Shown here one piece after another: positions 27,178 to 63,622 of a stretch of 64,000 bases of DNA. Positions within the stretch are counted from its first letter, which is position 1. Every line of letters starts with the position of its first letter. The notes under the pieces are model-generated. The model was not told where the DNA came from, searched no databases, and was given only the letters and a program-made list of their open reading frames with translations. The stretch is from a virus. Taxonomy: Duplodnaviria; Caudoviricetes. Position numbers and translations under genes: made by a program. The DNA is taken from the IMG/VR virus record IMGVR_UViG_3300035208_006730. The stretch is one strand, 5' to 3'.

Positions 27178-27310
27178 CCTGCTACTTTCTAAGTGATTGA
27201 TCACTATGAAATTCCTGCTTCAACGAAGATAGTTTCGTATCTTTTGATACCAGAGCTTTCTTCTCGACAGGCTTGACTTCCCGAGTAGCCCTCGGTAGTT
27301 GTTTTAAGTT
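27178..27310 (-). ncRNA. TnpB omega/reRNA scaffold overlapping the tnpB 3' end
   Basis: CCGAGGGCTACTCGGGAAGTCAAGCCTG...GAAGCAGGAA pattern after the last RuvC motif; boundaries approximate. Confidence 0.65.
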
Positions 27311-28351
27311 TAGGGCCGCATTATGATCACGATCTAAAACTAAACCACATTTACAATTAAAAGTCCGGTCTGATAACTGTAGGTCTTTGATGTCGCCACA
27401 AGAAGAACAGGTTTTGCTACTTGGAAACCAACGATCAGCAACTTGCAAATCAGTTTTATAAATTACCGACTTATAAGTTGTTTGTCGTCTAAACTCTCCA
27501 AAAGCGGCATCACTTAGAGACCTTGCTAGGTAACGATTCTGTACCATGCTCTTCACATTTAGATCTTCAATAATTATCGTTTGGTTTTCACGACAAAGTC
27601 TTGTAGTCAATTTATGAAGAGAATCCTGCCGGATATCTTTAATCTTGCAATGCAAACGAGCTAATCTATCAGCAGCTTTTTTGCGATTAGAAGATCCTTT
27701 TAGTTTTCTTGAATGTCTTCTAGAAAGCCTTTGTAAGCGCTTTAGATATTTACCTAAAGACTTGGGACCTTCTATTTTTTCATCAGTAGATAGAGTCGCT
27801 AGTGTAGTAATTCCAAGATCAACGCCAATCTTTTCGTTGCCAATACGGTCTTTATGGTAGTCACCAACATTAACTTGAACGGCAAGCATCCAACGGTCAG
27901 CTACTCGGCTAACGGTAGCGCTCATTACTTTGCCAGCGAACCTTAAGGTTTCTCGCATGCTAACCCAGCCAAGAACTGGAATCCTAACTTTCTTTTCGTC
28001 AAAAGAGATTTTATCGTTAGCAATGTAGAAAGAGTCTCTTTGTCCCTTTTTATGAAATTTAGGATACCCGGTTTTCTTTTTAAAGAAAGAACTAAACGCT
28101 TTTTGTAAGTTAGCGAAGGGTTGTGCGGTACAGTCTCTATGGACATCGCAGGTCCATGGAAACTCTTGTTTACGAATAGAGTTGAAGATCTTTTTAAGAG
28201 TTGAACTCTTGGGCTTCTCGCCTAACTCGTAACGTTGTTTCCATTGGCCAAGAGCCCAATTGTAAGAGAATCTAGCAGTACCACAAGCTTTCACAAAATA
28301 CTCTATCTGAGTTTTAGTTGGCATAAGTCTTATTTTATGAGAAAGAATCAT
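27182..28351 (-). CDS. tnpB: TnpB RNA-guided endonuclease (IS200/IS605/IS607 family)
   Basis: HTH_OrfB N-terminus; RuvC GVDLG, IIEDL and DRDHNAA; SSKTCSSC zinc finger. Confidence 0.95.
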   Translation of the reverse strand: MILSHKIRLMPTKTQIEYFVKACGTARFSYNWALGQWKQRYELGEKPKSSTLKKIFNSIRKQEFPWTCDVHRDCTAQPFANLQKAFSSFFKKKTGYPKFHKKGQRDSFYIANDKISFDEKKVRIPVLGWVSMRETLRFAGKVMSATVSRVADRWMLAVQVNVGDYHKDRIGNEKIGVDLGITTLATLSTDEKIEGPKSLGKYLKRLQRLSRRHSRKLKGSSNRKKAADRLARLHCKIKDIRQDSLHKLTTRLCRENQTIIIEDLNVKSMVQNRYLARSLSDAAFGEFRRQTTYKSVIYKTDLQVADRWFPSSKTCSSCGDIKDLQLSDRTFNCKCGLVLDRDHNAALNLKQLPRATREVKPVEKKALVSKDTKLSSLKQEFHSDQSLRK

Positions 28352-40458: not shown

Positions 40459-41226
40459 ATGACAACTTTTAATTTCGGTTTTGGCCCAATACCCGCTCAT
40501 CAACATCCAAATGGAGGTGGTTGGGTAGCGGATACCGCGAAAGTGGATCTAACTGCTTTTGTTGGGGAAAATTGTCAAGTATCCGAAAATGCTTTGGTAT
40601 CCGGAAATGCTCAGGTATCCGGAAATGCTCGGATATCCGGAAATGCTCGGATATCCGAAGATGCTCAGGTATTTGGAAATGCTTGGGTATTCGAAAATGC
40701 TCGGATATTTGGAAATACTCGGGTATCCGAAAATGCTTTGGTATCCGGAAATGCTCAGGTATTTGGAAATGCTCAGGTATTCGAAAATGCTTGGGTATTT
40801 GGAAATGCTCGGGTATTTGGAAATGCTCAGGTATTCAAAAATGCTCGGATATCCGAAGATGCTCAGGTATCCGAAAATGCTCGGGTATCCGGAAATGCTT
40901 GGATATCCGGAGATGCTCAGGTATTTGGAAATGCTCAGGTATCCGGAAATGCTCAGGTATCCAAAAATGCTCAGGTATTCGGAAATGCTCGGGTCCTTGG
41001 TATTCTCCATTCTGGTAATTGGAAGAAATCACCGATATTTATCCAAGGTACTCGAGATTCCATTTCCCAATGTGGACTCGATACCCTTCACATCGGATGT
41101 CAATGTCATTCGATAGAAGAATGGATTCGAGAAGGAACCAATATTGGGAAACAAAACGGATATTCGGAAGAAGAAATTGAAGAATATTTGAAACACATTA
41201 AATACATCCGAAGTTGCATCAAATGA
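40459..41226 (+). CDS. Hexapeptide-repeat (left-handed beta-helix) protein, copy 1
   Basis: 23 units of (S/F)(G/E/K)(N/D)A(Q/R/W)(V/I). Confidence 0.85.
   Translation: MTTFNFGFGPIPAHQHPNGGGWVADTAKVDLTAFVGENCQVSENALVSGNAQVSGNARISGNARISEDAQVFGNAWVFENARIFGNTRVSENALVSGNAQVFGNAQVFENAWVFGNARVFGNAQVFKNARISEDAQVSENARVSGNAWISGDAQVFGNAQVSGNAQVSKNAQVFGNARVLGILHSGNWKKSPIFIQGTRDSISQCGLDTLHIGCQCHSIEEWIREGTNIGKQNGYSEEEIEEYLKHIKYIRSCIK
40579..40995 (+). repeat. 18-nt tandem repeat (about 23 units)
   Basis: Consensus GTATCCGGAAATGCTCAG. Confidence 0.95.
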
Positions 41227-45676: not shown

Positions 45677-45754
45677 GCGCCTGTAGCTCAGTTGGATATG
45701 AGCAATTGTTTTCTAAACAATGGGCCGCCCGTTCGAATCGGGCCAGGCGCGCCA
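45677..45754 (+). tRNA. tRNA-Arg(TCT)
   Basis: GCGCCTG/CAGGCGC acceptor; ATTGT-TTTCTAA-ACAAT anticodon arm; TTCGAAT T-loop; encoded CCA. Confidence 0.9.
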
Positions 45755-47122: not shown

Positions 47123-47196
47123 CCCATCATCGTCTAATGGTAGGACGCTTGACTGTGGATCAAGAAATCTCTGTTCGATCCAGAGTGATGGGACCA
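47123..47196 (+). tRNA. tRNA-His(GTG), atypical acceptor end
   Basis: CCCATCA/TGATGGG acceptor; CTTGA-CTGTGGA-TCAAG; TTCGATC; ends A-CCA. Confidence 0.85.
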
Positions 47197-47198
47197 AA

Positions 47199-47274
47199 GC
47201 AGAAGTAGCTCAATTGGTAGAGCTCTGGCCTTCCAAGTCGGAGGTTGCGGGTTCGAGCCCCGTCTTCTGCTCCA
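47199..47274 (+). tRNA. tRNA-Gly(TCC)
   Basis: GCAGAAG/CTTCTGC acceptor; CTTCCAA anticodon loop; ends T-CCA. Confidence 0.92.
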
Positions 47275-49116: not shown

Positions 49117-50568
49117 ATGACCTATTTTGCCGCTATTGGTGAACTTGAAAATGTGCGCGCAAAACTCCAAGAAATGATCGATGAATTTCAAGAAAAGAAA
49201 GCTAGGTCCCAGGAGTTTGCAGCAGCAGTCGTTGATGGTCTCCAAATTGCTGGAGAAGATCAATCGGAAGTTGCTCCATTCTATCGTTGTGGTACTGAAT
49301 CTCGTCTCTCTGGTCCAATTAGGACTGATGAAGAACTTCTTCGAGACGCAGAAAGGAATGCTAAACGCAACTTCAAGGTCAGCGAAGAAACTGAAGAAGA
49401 ATGGACTGCGAAACCTATTTGGATTGGGAAGAATGATCATGGCTATTCCATCTCGATAAATGAAAGTCTCTGGAGTAAAGTTCAAGACGGTATCTCCTGG
49501 AGGTTTTCTGGTGAAGATGGTTTTGGCCGCAGGAAAAATCAAACTGAACTTGGTGAAGAACTTCTTCGCAATGTTAAAGCAAAACTTGCTCTCACTCAAG
49601 CTGTTCGGAAAGAAAGCGGAGTGATTGTTAAAGACCAAGGGAAGCAGATCAAGAATAAAGATTTGATCTTCGTCTATTCCATTGGCCCTAAAGAACAATT
49701 AACTCTTCGTATCTCCAAAGCAGGACAGGTTCGGGAAATTCAAGCCTGGAGATACATTTCGAAGAAACCTTCGTTTCAAGAACGACTGTTCGATTCGACC
49801 GATCACTGGAAAACTGTGAAAGAATTGGATTTCTTCCGACGTAACTTCAAAAAAAGCACTTCTCGTTGGGAAGAAGTATTCGAAATCGCAGGGATGGAAT
49901 TTCCTCTTTCGGAAACTGCTCGAGAGAAAGATCTCCAAGGTAAATGGAGATTCGATTTCCTTCCTTCGTTTCCTATGGTCGTTGGTTGTCTTCGTAGCGA
50001 AAAACATCGTGAAGTCGTCGAAAAAATGTACGAAACATTTGATCAGATGGCAGATCGAATCAGGGACGAAGACGAGCAAAAAGTTGCGGTAACCTACATC
50101 GAACTTGATATTACCGACATCATCGAAATGCTTCCCAATGATGATGAGACTATCGAGTTCACTCCTATCCATCCTGAGAACGATTTGAATGACGTTCTTC
50201 ATGCTATTGAAGATGGAACCGATATCAGTTGTTCTCCTGTAGATGTCGATTGGGCCGCTAAAAAAGTGAATGAGATTATCGAAGAATGCGATCCAGATAA
50301 TACTGGAGTGATTTGCAAAGCTTCGAAATCACGAGAACATCGTTCGGTCAAAGAAACTCTTCGGTGGTTGTATGGTCATCGTCAACAGAACAAGATCGTC
50401 CCTGGTTTTGTTTCGAATCCAGCTCTTGGGTTTGAACAACGTTCATTTCTTTTGGCTCTGAAGAATCCTAGCTATCAGGCTGTTAAAGAAAAAGAATTTG
50501 AACGACAGTTCGACATTCAAGAGATGAGTATTACTGATATTGAACAATTCTTTCAAGTCATTGCTTAG
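49117..50568 (+). CDS. Hypothetical protein (483 aa) sharing a C-terminal domain with 31241..32191
   Basis: AGGAGG RBS; HRSVKETLRWLYGH motif. Confidence 0.8.
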   Translation: MTYFAAIGELENVRAKLQEMIDEFQEKKARSQEFAAAVVDGLQIAGEDQSEVAPFYRCGTESRLSGPIRTDEELLRDAERNAKRNFKVSEETEEEWTAKPIWIGKNDHGYSISINESLWSKVQDGISWRFSGEDGFGRRKNQTELGEELLRNVKAKLALTQAVRKESGVIVKDQGKQIKNKDLIFVYSIGPKEQLTLRISKAGQVREIQAWRYISKKPSFQERLFDSTDHWKTVKELDFFRRNFKKSTSRWEEVFEIAGMEFPLSETAREKDLQGKWRFDFLPSFPMVVGCLRSEKHREVVEKMYETFDQMADRIRDEDEQKVAVTYIELDITDIIEMLPNDDETIEFTPIHPENDLNDVLHAIEDGTDISCSPVDVDWAAKKVNEIIEECDPDNTGVICKASKSREHRSVKETLRWLYGHRQQNKIVPGFVSNPALGFEQRSFLLALKNPSYQAVKEKEFERQFDIQEMSITDIEQFFQVIA

Positions 50569-50653
50569 CTCGGGTGGTGTAATCCGGCAGACACAAGAGA
50601 CTCAAAATCTCTTGGCTTCGGCCGTACGAGTTCAAATCTCGTTCCGAGCACCA
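50568..50653 (+). tRNA. tRNA-Leu(CAA)
   Basis: GCTCGGG/TCCGAGC acceptor; AGAGA-CTCAAAA-TCTCT; long variable arm; ends A-CCA. Confidence 0.9.
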
Positions 50654-54934: not shown

Positions 54935-55449
54935 CAACCTTTATTATTACTTTTATTGCTGGAATTGGTTTTGTTTCTATTCTTAGTCTTGCCACTTATG
55001 GAATAATTCAAGTGGTTCTAGGAACATGAAAATCTCTTCAGATAATATTTTCGATGTTGTAGCAGCAGTCTATTGGTATCTGACTGACAATCATTTTGGG
55101 CAATGGTCTGATGAGTATCTAGCTCTCTGTTCAATGGAGTATTCTCCTGGAATGATGGAGAAGGGGCCGCCAACAGAAGAATCTCAAGAGATCTATCTGA
55201 ATCTAACCTCTAAAAAAGCCATTAAATTGGCCGCTAAAATCAAAAAATATCTTGACGAGGAGTACTAATGAAATCTCCAGTCTATCATCGAATTCTTGCT
55301 AAAGATCTAGTAGAAAAACTAGGTGTCAAGGATAGAAATCTTCGACTCATTCGTTTAAAGAGTCAGCGGGAGTATTGGGATACTTCAATCGAAGATGAGA
55401 TTGAATTTATGTTTATGGAGGAAGAAACAATAATTTCTAAAGATTAATT

Positions 55450-55477
55450 GTCATGTCTTAGACATGTGGATTGAAAC
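55450..55477 (+). CRISPR. Solitary type I-C repeat-like unit (variant stem)
   Basis: GT-CATGTC-TTA-GACATG-TGGATTGAAAC in a 43-nt intergenic gap. Confidence 0.65.
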
Positions 55478-55490
55478 ATGGAGGAAGAGA

Positions 55491-55736
55491 ATGAAGTCCC
55501 CCAAAAGTCTTGAAGAACTAGTAGTAAAGTACGAAACTCAAGTAACAGTTTTTCAGCGAGAACTTGCTCAACGGACAGAAGATCATCTCATTACTTTGAC
55601 TAAATATTCTGAACTTCTTCAGAAGTACACAGAGTTAGTCGAAGCAGTGAAGCATCTTGGAATGACAACCCCTGAAGACATCACAGTTAGAATAAAGAAT
55701 ATTCTGAGTGATGTTGGAGTATTAAAGGAGAATTAA
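55491..55736 (+). CDS. Coiled-coil hypothetical protein
   Basis: GGAGG RBS directly after the repeat-like unit. Confidence 0.65.
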   Translation: MKSPKSLEELVVKYETQVTVFQRELAQRTEDHLITLTKYSELLQKYTELVEAVKHLGMTTPEDITVRIKNILSDVGVLKEN

Positions 55737-56081
55737 ATGGGTTATTCAGATATCGATGCCTATACTTTTCAGGATGTCTCAGAAATAATGAAACAATTAT
55801 TGGCTCAAGGATTTACAACTCCTACTCAACCTGCGGTTCCAAGTCCACTTGGTCCCAATACTTGTTCTTGTCCATCTTGCAAAGGAACTTCAGGATGTGT
55901 GCCTCGAGAAGTAGTAACAATTCAAGTAAAGACTCTTGAGGGGAAAGAGATTAGTCTTGAAGAAGAAAGCGAAGTTAAGCTTTGGCATTCTTCGAAAAAA
56001 ATAAAAGCCCGCGACATCCTCCCAGGAGACAGACTCGAGATTGAAGGAAAAGAAACCCAAATAACAAAGGTGATCAAATGA
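55737..56081 (+). CDS. Hypothetical protein (Cys cluster, Hint-like C-terminal fragment)
   Basis: AAGGAG RBS; CSCPSC; KARDILPGDRL. Confidence 0.6.
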   Translation: MGYSDIDAYTFQDVSEIMKQLLAQGFTTPTQPAVPSPLGPNTCSCPSCKGTSGCVPREVVTIQVKTLEGKEISLEEESEVKLWHSSKKIKARDILPGDRLEIEGKETQITKVIK

Positions 56082-56293
56082 ATCCTATTACTCCAAAAGG
56101 AATTAATGAAATGAATCTTTATCAAAACATTAACCAGAATCTTGCTCCTACTGCAGATCATCTTCGCCTTCTCGCTGAGATGGAAAAAGAAGTAACCTCT
56201 AAGATTATCGACAAGTTTACTTTCGATCTTCCAGATAATGAATTGACAAGCGCTTTACCGAAAGAGAATGTATCGAAGAAGGGGAGTACACAC

Positions 56294-56953
56294 ATGACAA
56301 CTTTTAATTTCGGTTTTGGCCCAATACCCGCTCATCAACATCCAAATGGAGGTGGTTGGGTAGCGGATACCGCGAAAGTGGATCTAACTGCTTTTGTTGG
56401 GGAAAATTGTCAAGTATCCGGAAATGCTTGGGTATCCGGAAATGCTCAGGTATCCAAAAATGCTCAGGTATCCGGAAATGCTCAGGTATCCAAAAATGCT
56501 CAGGTATTCGGAAATGCTCGGGTATCCGGAGATGCTCAGGTATCCGGAAATGCTCAGGTATTCGGAAATGCTCAGGTATTCGAAAATGCTCAGGTATTTG
56601 GAAATGCTTGGGTATCCGAAAATGCTCGGGTATTTGGAAATGCTCGGGTATTTGGAAATGCTCAGGTATTCAAAAATGCTCAGGTATCCGGAAATGCTCA
56701 GGTCCTTGGTATTCTCCATTCTGGTAATTGGGAAAAGTCGCCAATTTTCATCCAAGGTACTCGAGATTCCATTTCCCAATGTGGACTCGATACCCTTCAC
56801 ATCGGATGTCAATGTCATTCGATAGAAGAATGGATTCGAGAAGGAACCAATATTGGGGAACAAAATGGATATTCAGAAGAAGAAATTGAAGAATATTTGA
56901 ACTATATTTTCGTTATAGAACTTCAAAGGAGAAAGAATGGCAACTTTAAATAA
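56294..56953 (+). CDS. Hexapeptide-repeat protein, copy 2 (in frame with upstream ORF from 56078)
   Basis: GGGGAG RBS before ATG 56294; 16 repeat units; flanks nearly identical to copy 1. Confidence 0.85.
   Translation: MTTFNFGFGPIPAHQHPNGGGWVADTAKVDLTAFVGENCQVSGNAWVSGNAQVSKNAQVSGNAQVSKNAQVFGNARVSGDAQVSGNAQVFGNAQVFENAQVFGNAWVSENARVFGNARVFGNAQVFKNAQVSGNAQVLGILHSGNWEKSPIFIQGTRDSISQCGLDTLHIGCQCHSIEEWIREGTNIGEQNGYSEEEIEEYLNYIFVIELQRRKNGNFK
56414..56704 (+). repeat. 18-nt tandem repeat (about 16 units)
   Basis: Same unit as 40579-40995. Confidence 0.95.
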
Positions 56954-60002: not shown

Positions 60003-60034
60003 GTCGCGCCCCGCGCGGGCGCGTGGATTGAAAC
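60003..60034 (+). CRISPR. Solitary type I-C CRISPR repeat (32 nt), no array
   Basis: GTCGCGCCCCGCGCGGGCGCGTGGATTGAAAC, GC-rich within an AT-rich intergenic gap. Confidence 0.85.
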
Positions 60035-60075
60035 AACAGACGTATGGACAATATCTTGGAAATAAGGAGAGAAAA

Positions 60076-60264
60076 ATGGGAAGAGTAGAAGCATTTGCCT
60101 GTGACTTTTGCAAAAGAATCTTGTCGGGAGATATTTTTAAAATAACAGGAATAATTAAAGGAGAAGAGATTAATCTCGATTCTAGGGATTTCGGAGGTGA
60201 AATGATTTTGTGCAAGCATTGTTTTGCTAAATCTCTTGGATTTGAAGTAGTAACTAAAAGATGA
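60076..60264 (+). CDS. Small Zn-finger protein
   Basis: AAGGAG RBS; CDFC...CKHC. Confidence 0.65.
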   Translation: MGRVEAFACDFCKRILSGDIFKITGIIKGEEINLDSRDFGGEMILCKHCFAKSLGFEVVTKR

Positions 60265-62173: not shown

Positions 62174-62430
62174 GTCAATCACCCCTGAATAAATTCAGGG
62201 GCTTGAGTTGTGAAACTTAAGGGTAACAGGTTGATTAGGGGGCTTAAGGAGAAATCTTTTATGCAAACGTTACAAAGAGAGTTTAAGAACGTACCTACGG
62301 ATGCTTCACTAGTCTGTAGCTCTACAAGTTGTGAGTTAAACAGAGAGGAAACTCTCAGTGCTCATAGCAAAGTACTGATTTGTAACAATCCCGAAGTGAA
62401 TCAACATCAACTACAAACTGGTGGACTTAA
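62174..62430 (+). ncRNA. IscB omegaRNA scaffold (HEARO-like)
   Basis: GTCAATCACCCC..GGGGCTTG..GTTGATTAG..CCTACGGATGCTTCACTAGTCTGTAGCTCT..CCCGAAGTGAA; 3' boundary approximate. Confidence 0.8.
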
Positions 62431-63622
62431 AGTCAAGGTGTTTGTATTAAACATTAATGGAAAGCCATTAATGCCTTGTTCAATCACAAAAGCAAGACAT
62501 TTATTGCAAGGAGGAAGAGCTAATGTAGTTAAAAGATTCCCATTTACAATTAAATTGAATTTTGAATGTGAAAATAAAGTACAAGAAGTTAATTTAGGCA
62601 TTGATAGTGGTGCAAAGTTTATAGGTTTTTCAGCTACTTCTGAAAAGAAAGAGTTAATGTCAGGAACTTTAGTGTTAGATTTAAAAACAAAAGATCGATT
62701 AGATGAAAAAAGAATGTATCGTAGGAAACGTAGAAATAAATTAAGATATAGAAAACCAAGATTTAATAATAGAAAAAGAAAGACTGATTGGTTAGCACCT
62801 TCTATAGAAAGAAGATACCAAACTCATTTGACTTTGATAGAAAAAATTAAAAATTTACTACCTATTAAAAATGTTATAGTTGAGGTAGCAAAATTTGATA
62901 TACAAAAAATAATGAATCCTGAAATTAGTGGTGTTGAATATCAGCAAGGTAATCTTTATGAATATCAAAATATAGTTAGTTATCTTCAAGTAAGACAGGA
63001 TAATATTTGCGCTTATTGCAAGAAAGAATTTAAAGGTGAATCAAAAGCTACACATCATATTTACAGGCATGGTGATAATCGTAGAACAAATAGATCTGAA
63101 GGTTTAATTTTATTACATAAGAAATGTCACATTGATTTGCATGAGAAACATAGAGAAAAAGAATTTCAAAAACCTGTTAAAAGATATGAGCAATCAACAT
63201 TTATGTCAATAATACATAAGAGATTTTTTAAAGATATATCTGATTTACATGTAACTTATGGTTATATTACACAGGTGAAACGTAATAATTGTAATATAGA
63301 GAAAACTCATTATAATGATGCATTTATAATATCTGGTGGTAGTAATCAAATAAGAAGCAAACCTATAACTATAGAACAAAAGCATAGAAACAATAGAGTT
63401 TTACAGTTAAATAGGAAAGGTTTTAAACCATCAATTAAAAGAGAAAGAAGTAAAATATTGCCGAAAGATTTGTTTTGGTCAAATAATATTAAATATACTT
63501 GCAAAGGGATGTTTAATAAAGGTAAATATGTTTTATTTGGTGACTCTAAAAAGAAAGAATATATTAAGTTTACATTGATAGATAATATTTACAATTTTGG
63601 AAGTTTTGTATGGAATATCTAA
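62261..63622 (+). CDS. iscB: IscB RNA-guided nuclease
   Basis: PLMP; RuvC-I LGIDSG; Arg-rich bridge helix; RuvC-II VEV; HNH (CAYC..HH..N..CH); RuvC-III HYNDA; AAGGAG RBS before ATG 62261. Confidence 0.93.
   Translation: MQTLQREFKNVPTDASLVCSSTSCELNREETLSAHSKVLICNNPEVNQHQLQTGGLKVKVFVLNINGKPLMPCSITKARHLLQGGRANVVKRFPFTIKLNFECENKVQEVNLGIDSGAKFIGFSATSEKKELMSGTLVLDLKTKDRLDEKRMYRRKRRNKLRYRKPRFNNRKRKTDWLAPSIERRYQTHLTLIEKIKNLLPIKNVIVEVAKFDIQKIMNPEISGVEYQQGNLYEYQNIVSYLQVRQDNICAYCKKEFKGESKATHHIYRHGDNRRTNRSEGLILLHKKCHIDLHEKHREKEFQKPVKRYEQSTFMSIIHKRFFKDISDLHVTYGYITQVKRNNCNIEKTHYNDAFIISGGSNQIRSKPITIEQKHRNNRVLQLNRKGFKPSIKRERSKILPKDLFWSNNIKYTCKGMFNKGKYVLFGDSKKKEYIKFTLIDNIYNFGSFVWNI

Follow-up and report, generated by a model that had tools for sequence, protein, structure and literature searches.

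A compact type I-C repeat-like unit ahead of a phage ribosome-binding site as a candidate RNA anti-CRISPR

Introduction

Phages carry solitary CRISPR repeat units that function as RNA anti-CRISPRs through the sequestration of Cas proteins (Camara-Wilpert 2023, PMC10651486), and a non-targeting crRNA inhibits in the same way, namely by competition (PMC10651486). An instructive example for type I-C systems is RacrIC1, which is encoded by a prophage of B. pseudocatenulatum (Bifidobacterium pseudocatenulatum) 11 nt after the acrIC5 gene, shares a single transcript with it, and is an inhibitor of type I-C interference (PMC10651486). To enter the SRUFinder collection, a solitary unit had to reach a BLAST bit score of 41.1 or more against a known repeat (PMC10651486). 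RacrIF1 works via Cas6f, a protein that binds the hairpin of the repeat, whereas Cas5c reads the handle side. Recognition of type I-C repeats by Cas5c depends on the base of the stem and the UGG/3' overhang and not on the loop or the 5' overhang; all characterised repeats of this type possess a 7-bp stem and a 5-nt loop (PMC8524198).

Solitary type I-C units also occur in Neisseria and other bacteria, where they are cut by Cas5c to yield RNAs with an 11-nt handle and ragged 3' ends (bioRxiv 10.1101/2024.12.27.630466). The crlRNAs derived from such solitary units of the host repress promoters, and their psiR elements combine a diverged palindrome with a conserved handle (bioRxiv 10.1101/2024.12.27.630466). 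Phages copy the crlRNA principle, and the viral Cracrs that result include representatives of type I-C (bioRxiv 10.1101/2024.10.29.618823).

The subject of this report is a 28-nt element at position 55450 of a 64-kb stretch of phage DNA (hereafter, the window), to which an earlier note, made from the sequence alone, had drawn attention as a mimic of a type I-C repeat that abuts a ribosome-binding site (RBS). We describe its sequence and fold, its relationship to a second repeat at position 60003, and the recurrence of its design in other viral contigs, and we weigh what it might do.

Two solitary repeat units in the window

The element at 55450 (Table 1) has the sequence GTCATGTCTTAGACATGTGGATTGAAAC on the + strand and is composed, in this order, of GT-CATGTC-TTA-GACATG-TGGATTGAAAC. 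Its stem consists of six Watson-Crick pairs between positions 55452-55457 and 55461-55466, the loop is UUA (55458-55460), and the handle, UGGAUUGAAAC, comprises the 11 nt from 55467 to 55477 and is identical to positions 60024-60034 of the second unit. RNA folding yields, for both units, a hairpin that is flush with an 11-nt tail and leaves a 2-nt GU overhang. In the 55450 unit a C-G pair closes the stem, and folding and sequence agree that the hairpin ends exactly at the predicted Cas5c cleavage site, which is located between 55466 and 55467. The folding-energy z-score is unremarkable (-0.98), as is to be expected of a stem of this length, and the G+C content of the unit (39%) is the same as that of the phage. 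The unit takes up most of the 43 nt that separate the preceding stop codon from the ATG at 55491. Another ATG at 55464, which lies in frame within the 3' arm of the stem, was considered as an alternative start but was rejected, as no RBS precedes it.

Table 1. Positions of the two repeat units, of the features next to them, and of the closest analogues in other viral contigs
Feature	Position	Strand	Remarks
Compact type I-C solitary repeat unit, 28 nt	55450-55477	+	Assigned from sequence, fold, covariance model and viral analogues
ORF, 59 aa	55268-55447	+	Upstream of the 55450 unit; stop codon at 55445-55447, 2 nt before the unit
GGAGG ribosome-binding site of ORF 55491	55480-55484	+	Starts 3 nt past the handle
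ORF, 81 aa	55491-55736	+	Downstream of the 55450 unit; predicted long helix plus short helix
11-nt direct repeat ATGGAGGAAGA, first copy	55415-55425	+	Within the end of the upstream ORF
11-nt direct repeat ATGGAGGAAGA, second copy	55478-55488	+	Abuts the 3' end (handle) of the unit; contains the RBS
Canonical type I-C repeat, 32 nt, second solitary unit	60003-60034	+	7-bp stem, 5-nt loop, same handle
ORF, 62 aa, CxxC...CxxC	60076-60264	+	41 nt past the 60003 unit
Closest analogue in L161	1761-1788	-	Overlaps the stop of the upstream gene (AAG TCA TAG)
Closest analogue in L172	4902-4929		Overlaps the stop of the upstream gene (AAG TCA TAG)
Closest analogue in L202	11697-11724		Overlaps the stop of the upstream gene (AAG TCA TAG)

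The second unit begins 13 nt past a stop codon and is followed by an AAGGAG motif at 60064-60069, that is, 30-35 nt past the handle, and then by the ATG of ORF 60076. Its repeat corresponds to the type I-C consensus, and identical copies are found in the CRISPR arrays of many phyla. The two units have in common the 5' GTC and the exact 12-mer GTGGATTGAAAC, with a contiguous identity of 13 bases, and a comparison of their flanks revealed no likeness beyond this 13-mer. Relative to the 60003 repeat, pairs 2, 3 and 5 of the 55450 stem are changed on both sides (G-C to A-U, C-G to U-A and C-G to U-A, respectively), the stem is shorter by one pair, and the loop measures 3 nt against 5 nt. Rfam holds no match for the 55450 unit, and the 60003 unit matches CRISPR-DR9 weakly. 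The account that had originally been given of the locus, with a hairpin and an 11-nt handle at 55450, a 5' GTC, closing C-G pair and handle shared with the repeat at 60003, a 43-nt gap that also holds GGAGG and ATG, and a next RBS within about 35 nt at 60003, is borne out in all of these points by the sequence, the coordinates and the RNA folding.

Solitary, dispersed copies of the 60003 repeat are also present in other viral contigs, for instance three in a single 50-kb contig (L001:6125-6156; L002:358-389 and 955-986). Two of these three copies have about 22 nt of their upstream flank in common (GGTGATATCTTCARTATCTGCG), which means that the unit was copied along with its flank.

The likeness between the two units exceeds what the composition of the window would produce. 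There are two exact copies of GTGGATTGAAAC in the 64-kb window, both on the + (gene) strand, where 0.03 would be expected, and none of 100 shuffled sequences contained two or more. The exactness of the match matters because the 11-mer is found at background level in the window when one mismatch is allowed. Covariance model R1, which represents 28-nt units, scores the 55450 unit at 42 bits and the 60003 unit at 32 bits, with the next best position at 13 bits, and a script that looks for the motif plus a hairpin returned these two units and no others from the 64 kb. They are placed 4.5 kb apart and are thus not arrayed with spacers of about 33-35 nt. Chance as the source of the likeness is excluded by the sequence.

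An 11-nt direct repeat, ATGGAGGAAGA, occurs exactly twice in the window, and its two copies bracket a 52-nt segment that includes the 55450 unit. The probability of such bracketing is about 0.005, a value that was calculated post hoc. The arrangement points to an insertion or duplication at the RBS as the origin of the unit, with the repeat pair as a possible footprint of this event.

Comparison with described solitary repeats

The 55450 unit keeps the parts of the repeat that Cas5c reportedly reads and shortens the rest. Like RacrIC1, it is a solitary type I-C mimic that is carried by a phage within a few nucleotides of a small gene, with which it would be co-transcribed, as RacrIC1 is with its own neighbour. 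RacrIC1, however, bears a close resemblance to a full repeat and is located downstream of a known acr gene, whereas the 55450 unit has a 6-bp stem and a 3-nt loop, lies directly upstream of an RBS, and has no recognisable acr neighbour. Solitary intergenic repeat mimicry is likewise a trait of RacrIF1 and the SRUFinder units, which act by competition for Cas proteins. While the latter were found through their similarity to known repeats, the 55450 unit is estimated to fall below the 41.1-bit cut-off, because it has only 13 contiguous bases in common with the canonical repeat. The short-stem sequences that were tried did not occur in the available part of the PMC10651486 supplement.

Short-stem type I-C units in other viral contigs

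A scan of viral contigs for the pattern GTC-N10-15-GTGGATTGAAAC returned at least 120 loci. Among the 122 pattern matches listed, 37 possess a flush stem of at least 5 pairs, while only about 3.1 would be expected when the interior of the pattern is shuffled. These 37 short-stem units are 27-31 nt in length; their stems are variable, and the stem base and the handle are constant. A wider script pass, in which the gap between GTC and the handle could extend to 18 nt and which also took in the window and L001-L004, yielded, among the matches listed, 36 unique units with lengths of 27-33 nt. In these 36 units, the C-G identity of pair 1 follows from the search pattern; pair 2 is R-Y in nearly all of them, and all four Watson-Crick types occur at pairs 3-5. 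The pair statistics come from structure-anchored counts and from counts on a gap-free 28-nt subset, both of which were used because MAFFT placed gaps wrongly within the 5' arm when it aligned the 36 units. For the 28-nt subset the covariation counts are high but partly circular, because the analogues were picked for having a hairpin, and the enrichment over shuffled interiors (37 against about 3.1) is the cleaner evidence, as it is independent of this selection. The claim of the earlier note that handle and structure are kept while the stem sequence changes is supported; the same pattern recurs in many unrelated viral contigs and matches the published determinants of Cas5c.

The closest analogue among the matches listed, GTCATAGC-TTA-GCTATG-TGGATTGAAAC, is found in L161, L172 and L202 (Table 1) and agrees with the 55450 unit at 24 of 28 positions, the differences amounting to two pair swaps. 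Within this group of three, neither the stem nor the handle varies, while each of the three loop positions does. The downstream proteins of these contigs are only 47-56% identical, while the upstream gene is well conserved, and recent shared ancestry therefore explains part of the invariance of the unit. A comparable picture emerges from L137/L242, L160a/b and L154a/b, whose differences are confined to the loop or the tip of the stem and in which pairing is kept through G-U. The units of L161, L172 and L202 carry ACTATCA on both flanks, a possible sign of an insertion accompanied by a short duplication.

With respect to the orientation of the neighbouring genes, 12 of the unique units are co-directional, 10 are antisense, and 14 are ambiguous. 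Roughly one in three of the unique units from other phages forms a stand-alone small-RNA gene; many of these genes have terminators, and they are often antisense to their neighbours. The layout seen at 55450, in which the unit occupies the entire space from a stop codon to the RBS that follows, recurs in unrelated phages, with distances from the handle to the start codon of 10 nt in L169, 19 nt in L188, 26 nt in L137/L242, 13 nt in L231, and 14 and 46 nt in L160.

Two further arrangements deserve a brief description. At L136:1835-1960 (and also in L213 and L229), a compact type I-C unit is followed by 14 nt, a Cas12a-type repeat (AATTTCTACTATTGTAGAT), about 21 nt and a terminator; this locus looks like a small-RNA gene that joins mimics of two CRISPR types. 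The other is a pair of 30-nt type I-C-like repeats with slightly different stems, 54 nt apart in a viral contig of 141 kb (L134:5058-5171), which may represent a mini-array or a unit of the Cracr type.

A probable decoy for Cas proteins and the alternatives to it

The 55450 unit is best seen as a somewhat unusual member of a known counter-defence strategy, of a kind described in 2023. More probably than not, it is a miniaturised type I-C solitary repeat that would be transcribed within an operon and that makes a candidate RNA anti-CRISPR of the Racr type. The idea that it serves as a decoy is a reasonable one and had been raised in the earlier note, together with the statement that no such system was known; for the decoy part that statement was wrong, since RNA anti-CRISPRs, RacrIC1 among them, are described in PMC10651486.

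The analysis establishes the sequence of the unit, its fold, its non-random likeness to the 60003 repeat and the recurrence of its design in other phages; from these we infer that the unit is transcribed, that Cas5c binds and cuts it, and that immunity is inhibited. Both units would be transcribed as part of the + strand operon, and the Cas5c protein of the host would recognise the base of the stem together with UGGAUUGAAAC and cut after G55466 (and after G60023 in the second unit). Cas5c would then remain on the 11-nt handle and nucleate the assembly of Cas7 and Cas8c on the RNA that follows, and the product would be a Cascade complex with a non-targeting "guide" made of the phage's own sequence. 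In the phage DNA, the copy of this would-be guide has AAC in front of it instead of a TTC PAM, and the phage would therefore not be attacked by the Cascade formed in this way. Cas proteins would be drawn off from the real crRNAs. The presence of two units with different stems might serve to raise the dose, or to cover the Cas5c variants of different hosts. With its 6-bp stem and 3-nt loop, the 55450 unit departs from the 7 bp and 5 nt of all characterised repeats, a point against this reading, and is a putative substrate of Cas5c.

Should the 55450 unit bind Cas5c, it would stand for a class of candidate RNA anti-CRISPRs that are miniaturised type I-C units of 27-31 nt. In such compact units nothing but the stem base and the handle is retained, and searches for solitary repeats that build on similarity probably miss them. 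The count of RNA anti-CRISPRs would rise accordingly, and a minimal natural recognition element for Cas5c would be defined. In addition, the stop-unit-RBS layout, which is present twice here and in several other phages, offers a concrete test of whether phage mRNAs are processed by Cas nucleases.

The position of the unit ahead of an RBS can also be read as a device that acts in cis, in which cleavage by Cas5c and coating by Cas7 past the handle would cover the RBS and the AUG, so that the translation or stability of the ORF 55491 message follows the Cas status of the host. The GGAGG is placed 3-7 nt and the AUG 14-16 nt past the handle, both within the first three 6-nt steps of Cas7, and the recurrence of the gap-filling layout in L169, L188, L137/L242, L231 and L160 would fit such a role. 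However, any insert in a 15-nt intercistronic gap would adjoin an RBS, many of the units elsewhere are stand-alone, terminator-equipped genes that run antisense to their neighbours, the distance from handle to start drifts within the L161/L172/L202 group (30, 31 and 38 nt), and the genes downstream of the units share no family. The direction of the proposed regulation is unclear as well, for an anti-CRISPR protein should be on, and not off, when Cas proteins are present. We regard Cas-dependent regulation in cis as unlikely, and note that it could coexist with action as a decoy. The "Cas-sensing mRNA switch" of the earlier note, which had been drawn solely from the closeness of the RBS, a circumstance natural in a tightly packed operon, is not supported. 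In the literature searched, no description of a natural Cas-gated mRNA switch of this kind was found. Hairpins for Csy4 (Cas6f) were reportedly engineered between cistrons by Qi et al. in 2012 and insulate gene expression. The 55450 unit resembles these insulators in that a CRISPR hairpin is placed between a stop codon and the next RBS; the Csy4 insulators, in contrast, are synthetic, depend on Cas6f, and were designed for the cutting of a polycistronic mRNA by a Cas protein, whereas such a use of the 55450 unit is hypothetical. That compact mimics between stop codon and RBS turn ordinary phage mRNAs into substrates of Cas5c or Cascade, with the CRISPR status gating the downstream gene, is a possibility to which we give little credence. 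If true, it would provide a natural counterpart of the engineered Csy4 insulators, with a recurrent layout in several unrelated phages.

We see equally little likelihood in a regulatory crRNA-like guide (a Cracr or crlRNA), whose handle and about 35 nt of following sequence would steer the host Cascade to a partly matching host promoter and repress it, for example the promoter that drives the cas operon or a defence system. A diverged palindrome next to a conserved handle, as present in the 55450 unit, is the psiR hallmark of type I-C crlRNAs, and viral Cracrs of this very type exist; the described crlRNA and Cracr units are cut by Cas5c to an RNA that starts with an 11-nt handle. These RNAs, though, contain a spacer-like part that matches a PAM-adjacent promoter, along with a 3' hairpin or second repeat-like element, neither of which was found for the 55450 unit, as judged for the latter by folding and the covariance model. 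Its would-be guide consists of the RBS and the first codons of a phage gene and is hence constrained by coding; partial targets flanked by a PAM were not found in the window above the level of shuffled guides; and scans for promoters and terminators at the units gave background-level results. Still further from likelihood is a functionless remnant, either a captured repeat in decay or a by-product of the recombination that made the ATGGAGGAAGA repeat. The bracketing of the 52-nt segment by this repeat does hint at an insertion or duplication, and the G+C content of the unit matches that of the phage; a perfect 6-bp stem in which three pairs have changed on both sides, next to a 12-mer that has stayed intact, is however not what decay would produce, and the same compact design recurs widely. 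Least credible of all, and in our view highly improbable, is a single-repeat guide, by which the phage sequence past the handle would arm the host Cascade against relatives that lack the insert: neither locus nor homologue searches found relatives, and in a version without the insert a TTC would have to precede the protospacer.

Phage context and neighbouring genes

The window is part of a large phage with a major head protein, a single-stranded DNA-binding protein (SSB) and a dCMP deaminase, and both units reside in an extended series of small ORFs that run in one direction and mostly have no assigned function. The 55450 unit is intergenic on this phage; there is no second unit in its 100-bp flanks, there are no cas genes nearby, and no known Acr gene was found in its vicinity. 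Examined as possible Acr or Aca neighbours, the four small ORFs that flank the two units gave nothing in PHROGs, Pfam, a PDB sequence search or the atlas, and the 59-aa ORF upstream of the 55450 unit has neither a family nor a match among solved structures. A structure model of ORF 55491 (pLDDT 88, from a single sequence) had no significant fold match, and the model of ORF 60076 is of low confidence (pLDDT 53). An anti-CRISPR role of ORFs 55491 and 60076, as had been suggested for them, thus finds no support in the family, PDB-sequence and structure-model work.

A homologue search with ORF 55491 returned the identical protein and none outside this phage, the contigs that encode it being the same phage (99.4-99.99% identity) with an identical 55450 unit. 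No relatives emerged when loci were searched by protein with ORF 55491 and ORF 55737, and scans of the viral, genome and metagenome collections for the exact 55450 unit gave no match. As to the host, none of 1377 spacers from 95 canonical type I-C arrays fully matches the window.

BLAST against phage records hit only a repeat-rich beta-helix gene. This gene, which has an internal array of short repeats, is present in two copies, at 56078-56953 and at about 40459-41226, and its array is the main variable site among the near-identical metagenome copies of the phage. A 470-aa HNH/IscB-like ORF overlaps at its start with a 121-bit match to the HEARO (omega) RNA (window positions 62174-63622), and the phage therefore carries an IscB element. 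A 389-aa ORF on the - strand (27182-28351) matches the phage transposase family phrog_506 (E 1e-111) and adjoins structural genes. Four tRNA genes, all on the + strand, were identified through Rfam at 45677-45751, 47123-47193, 47199-47271 and 50568-50650.
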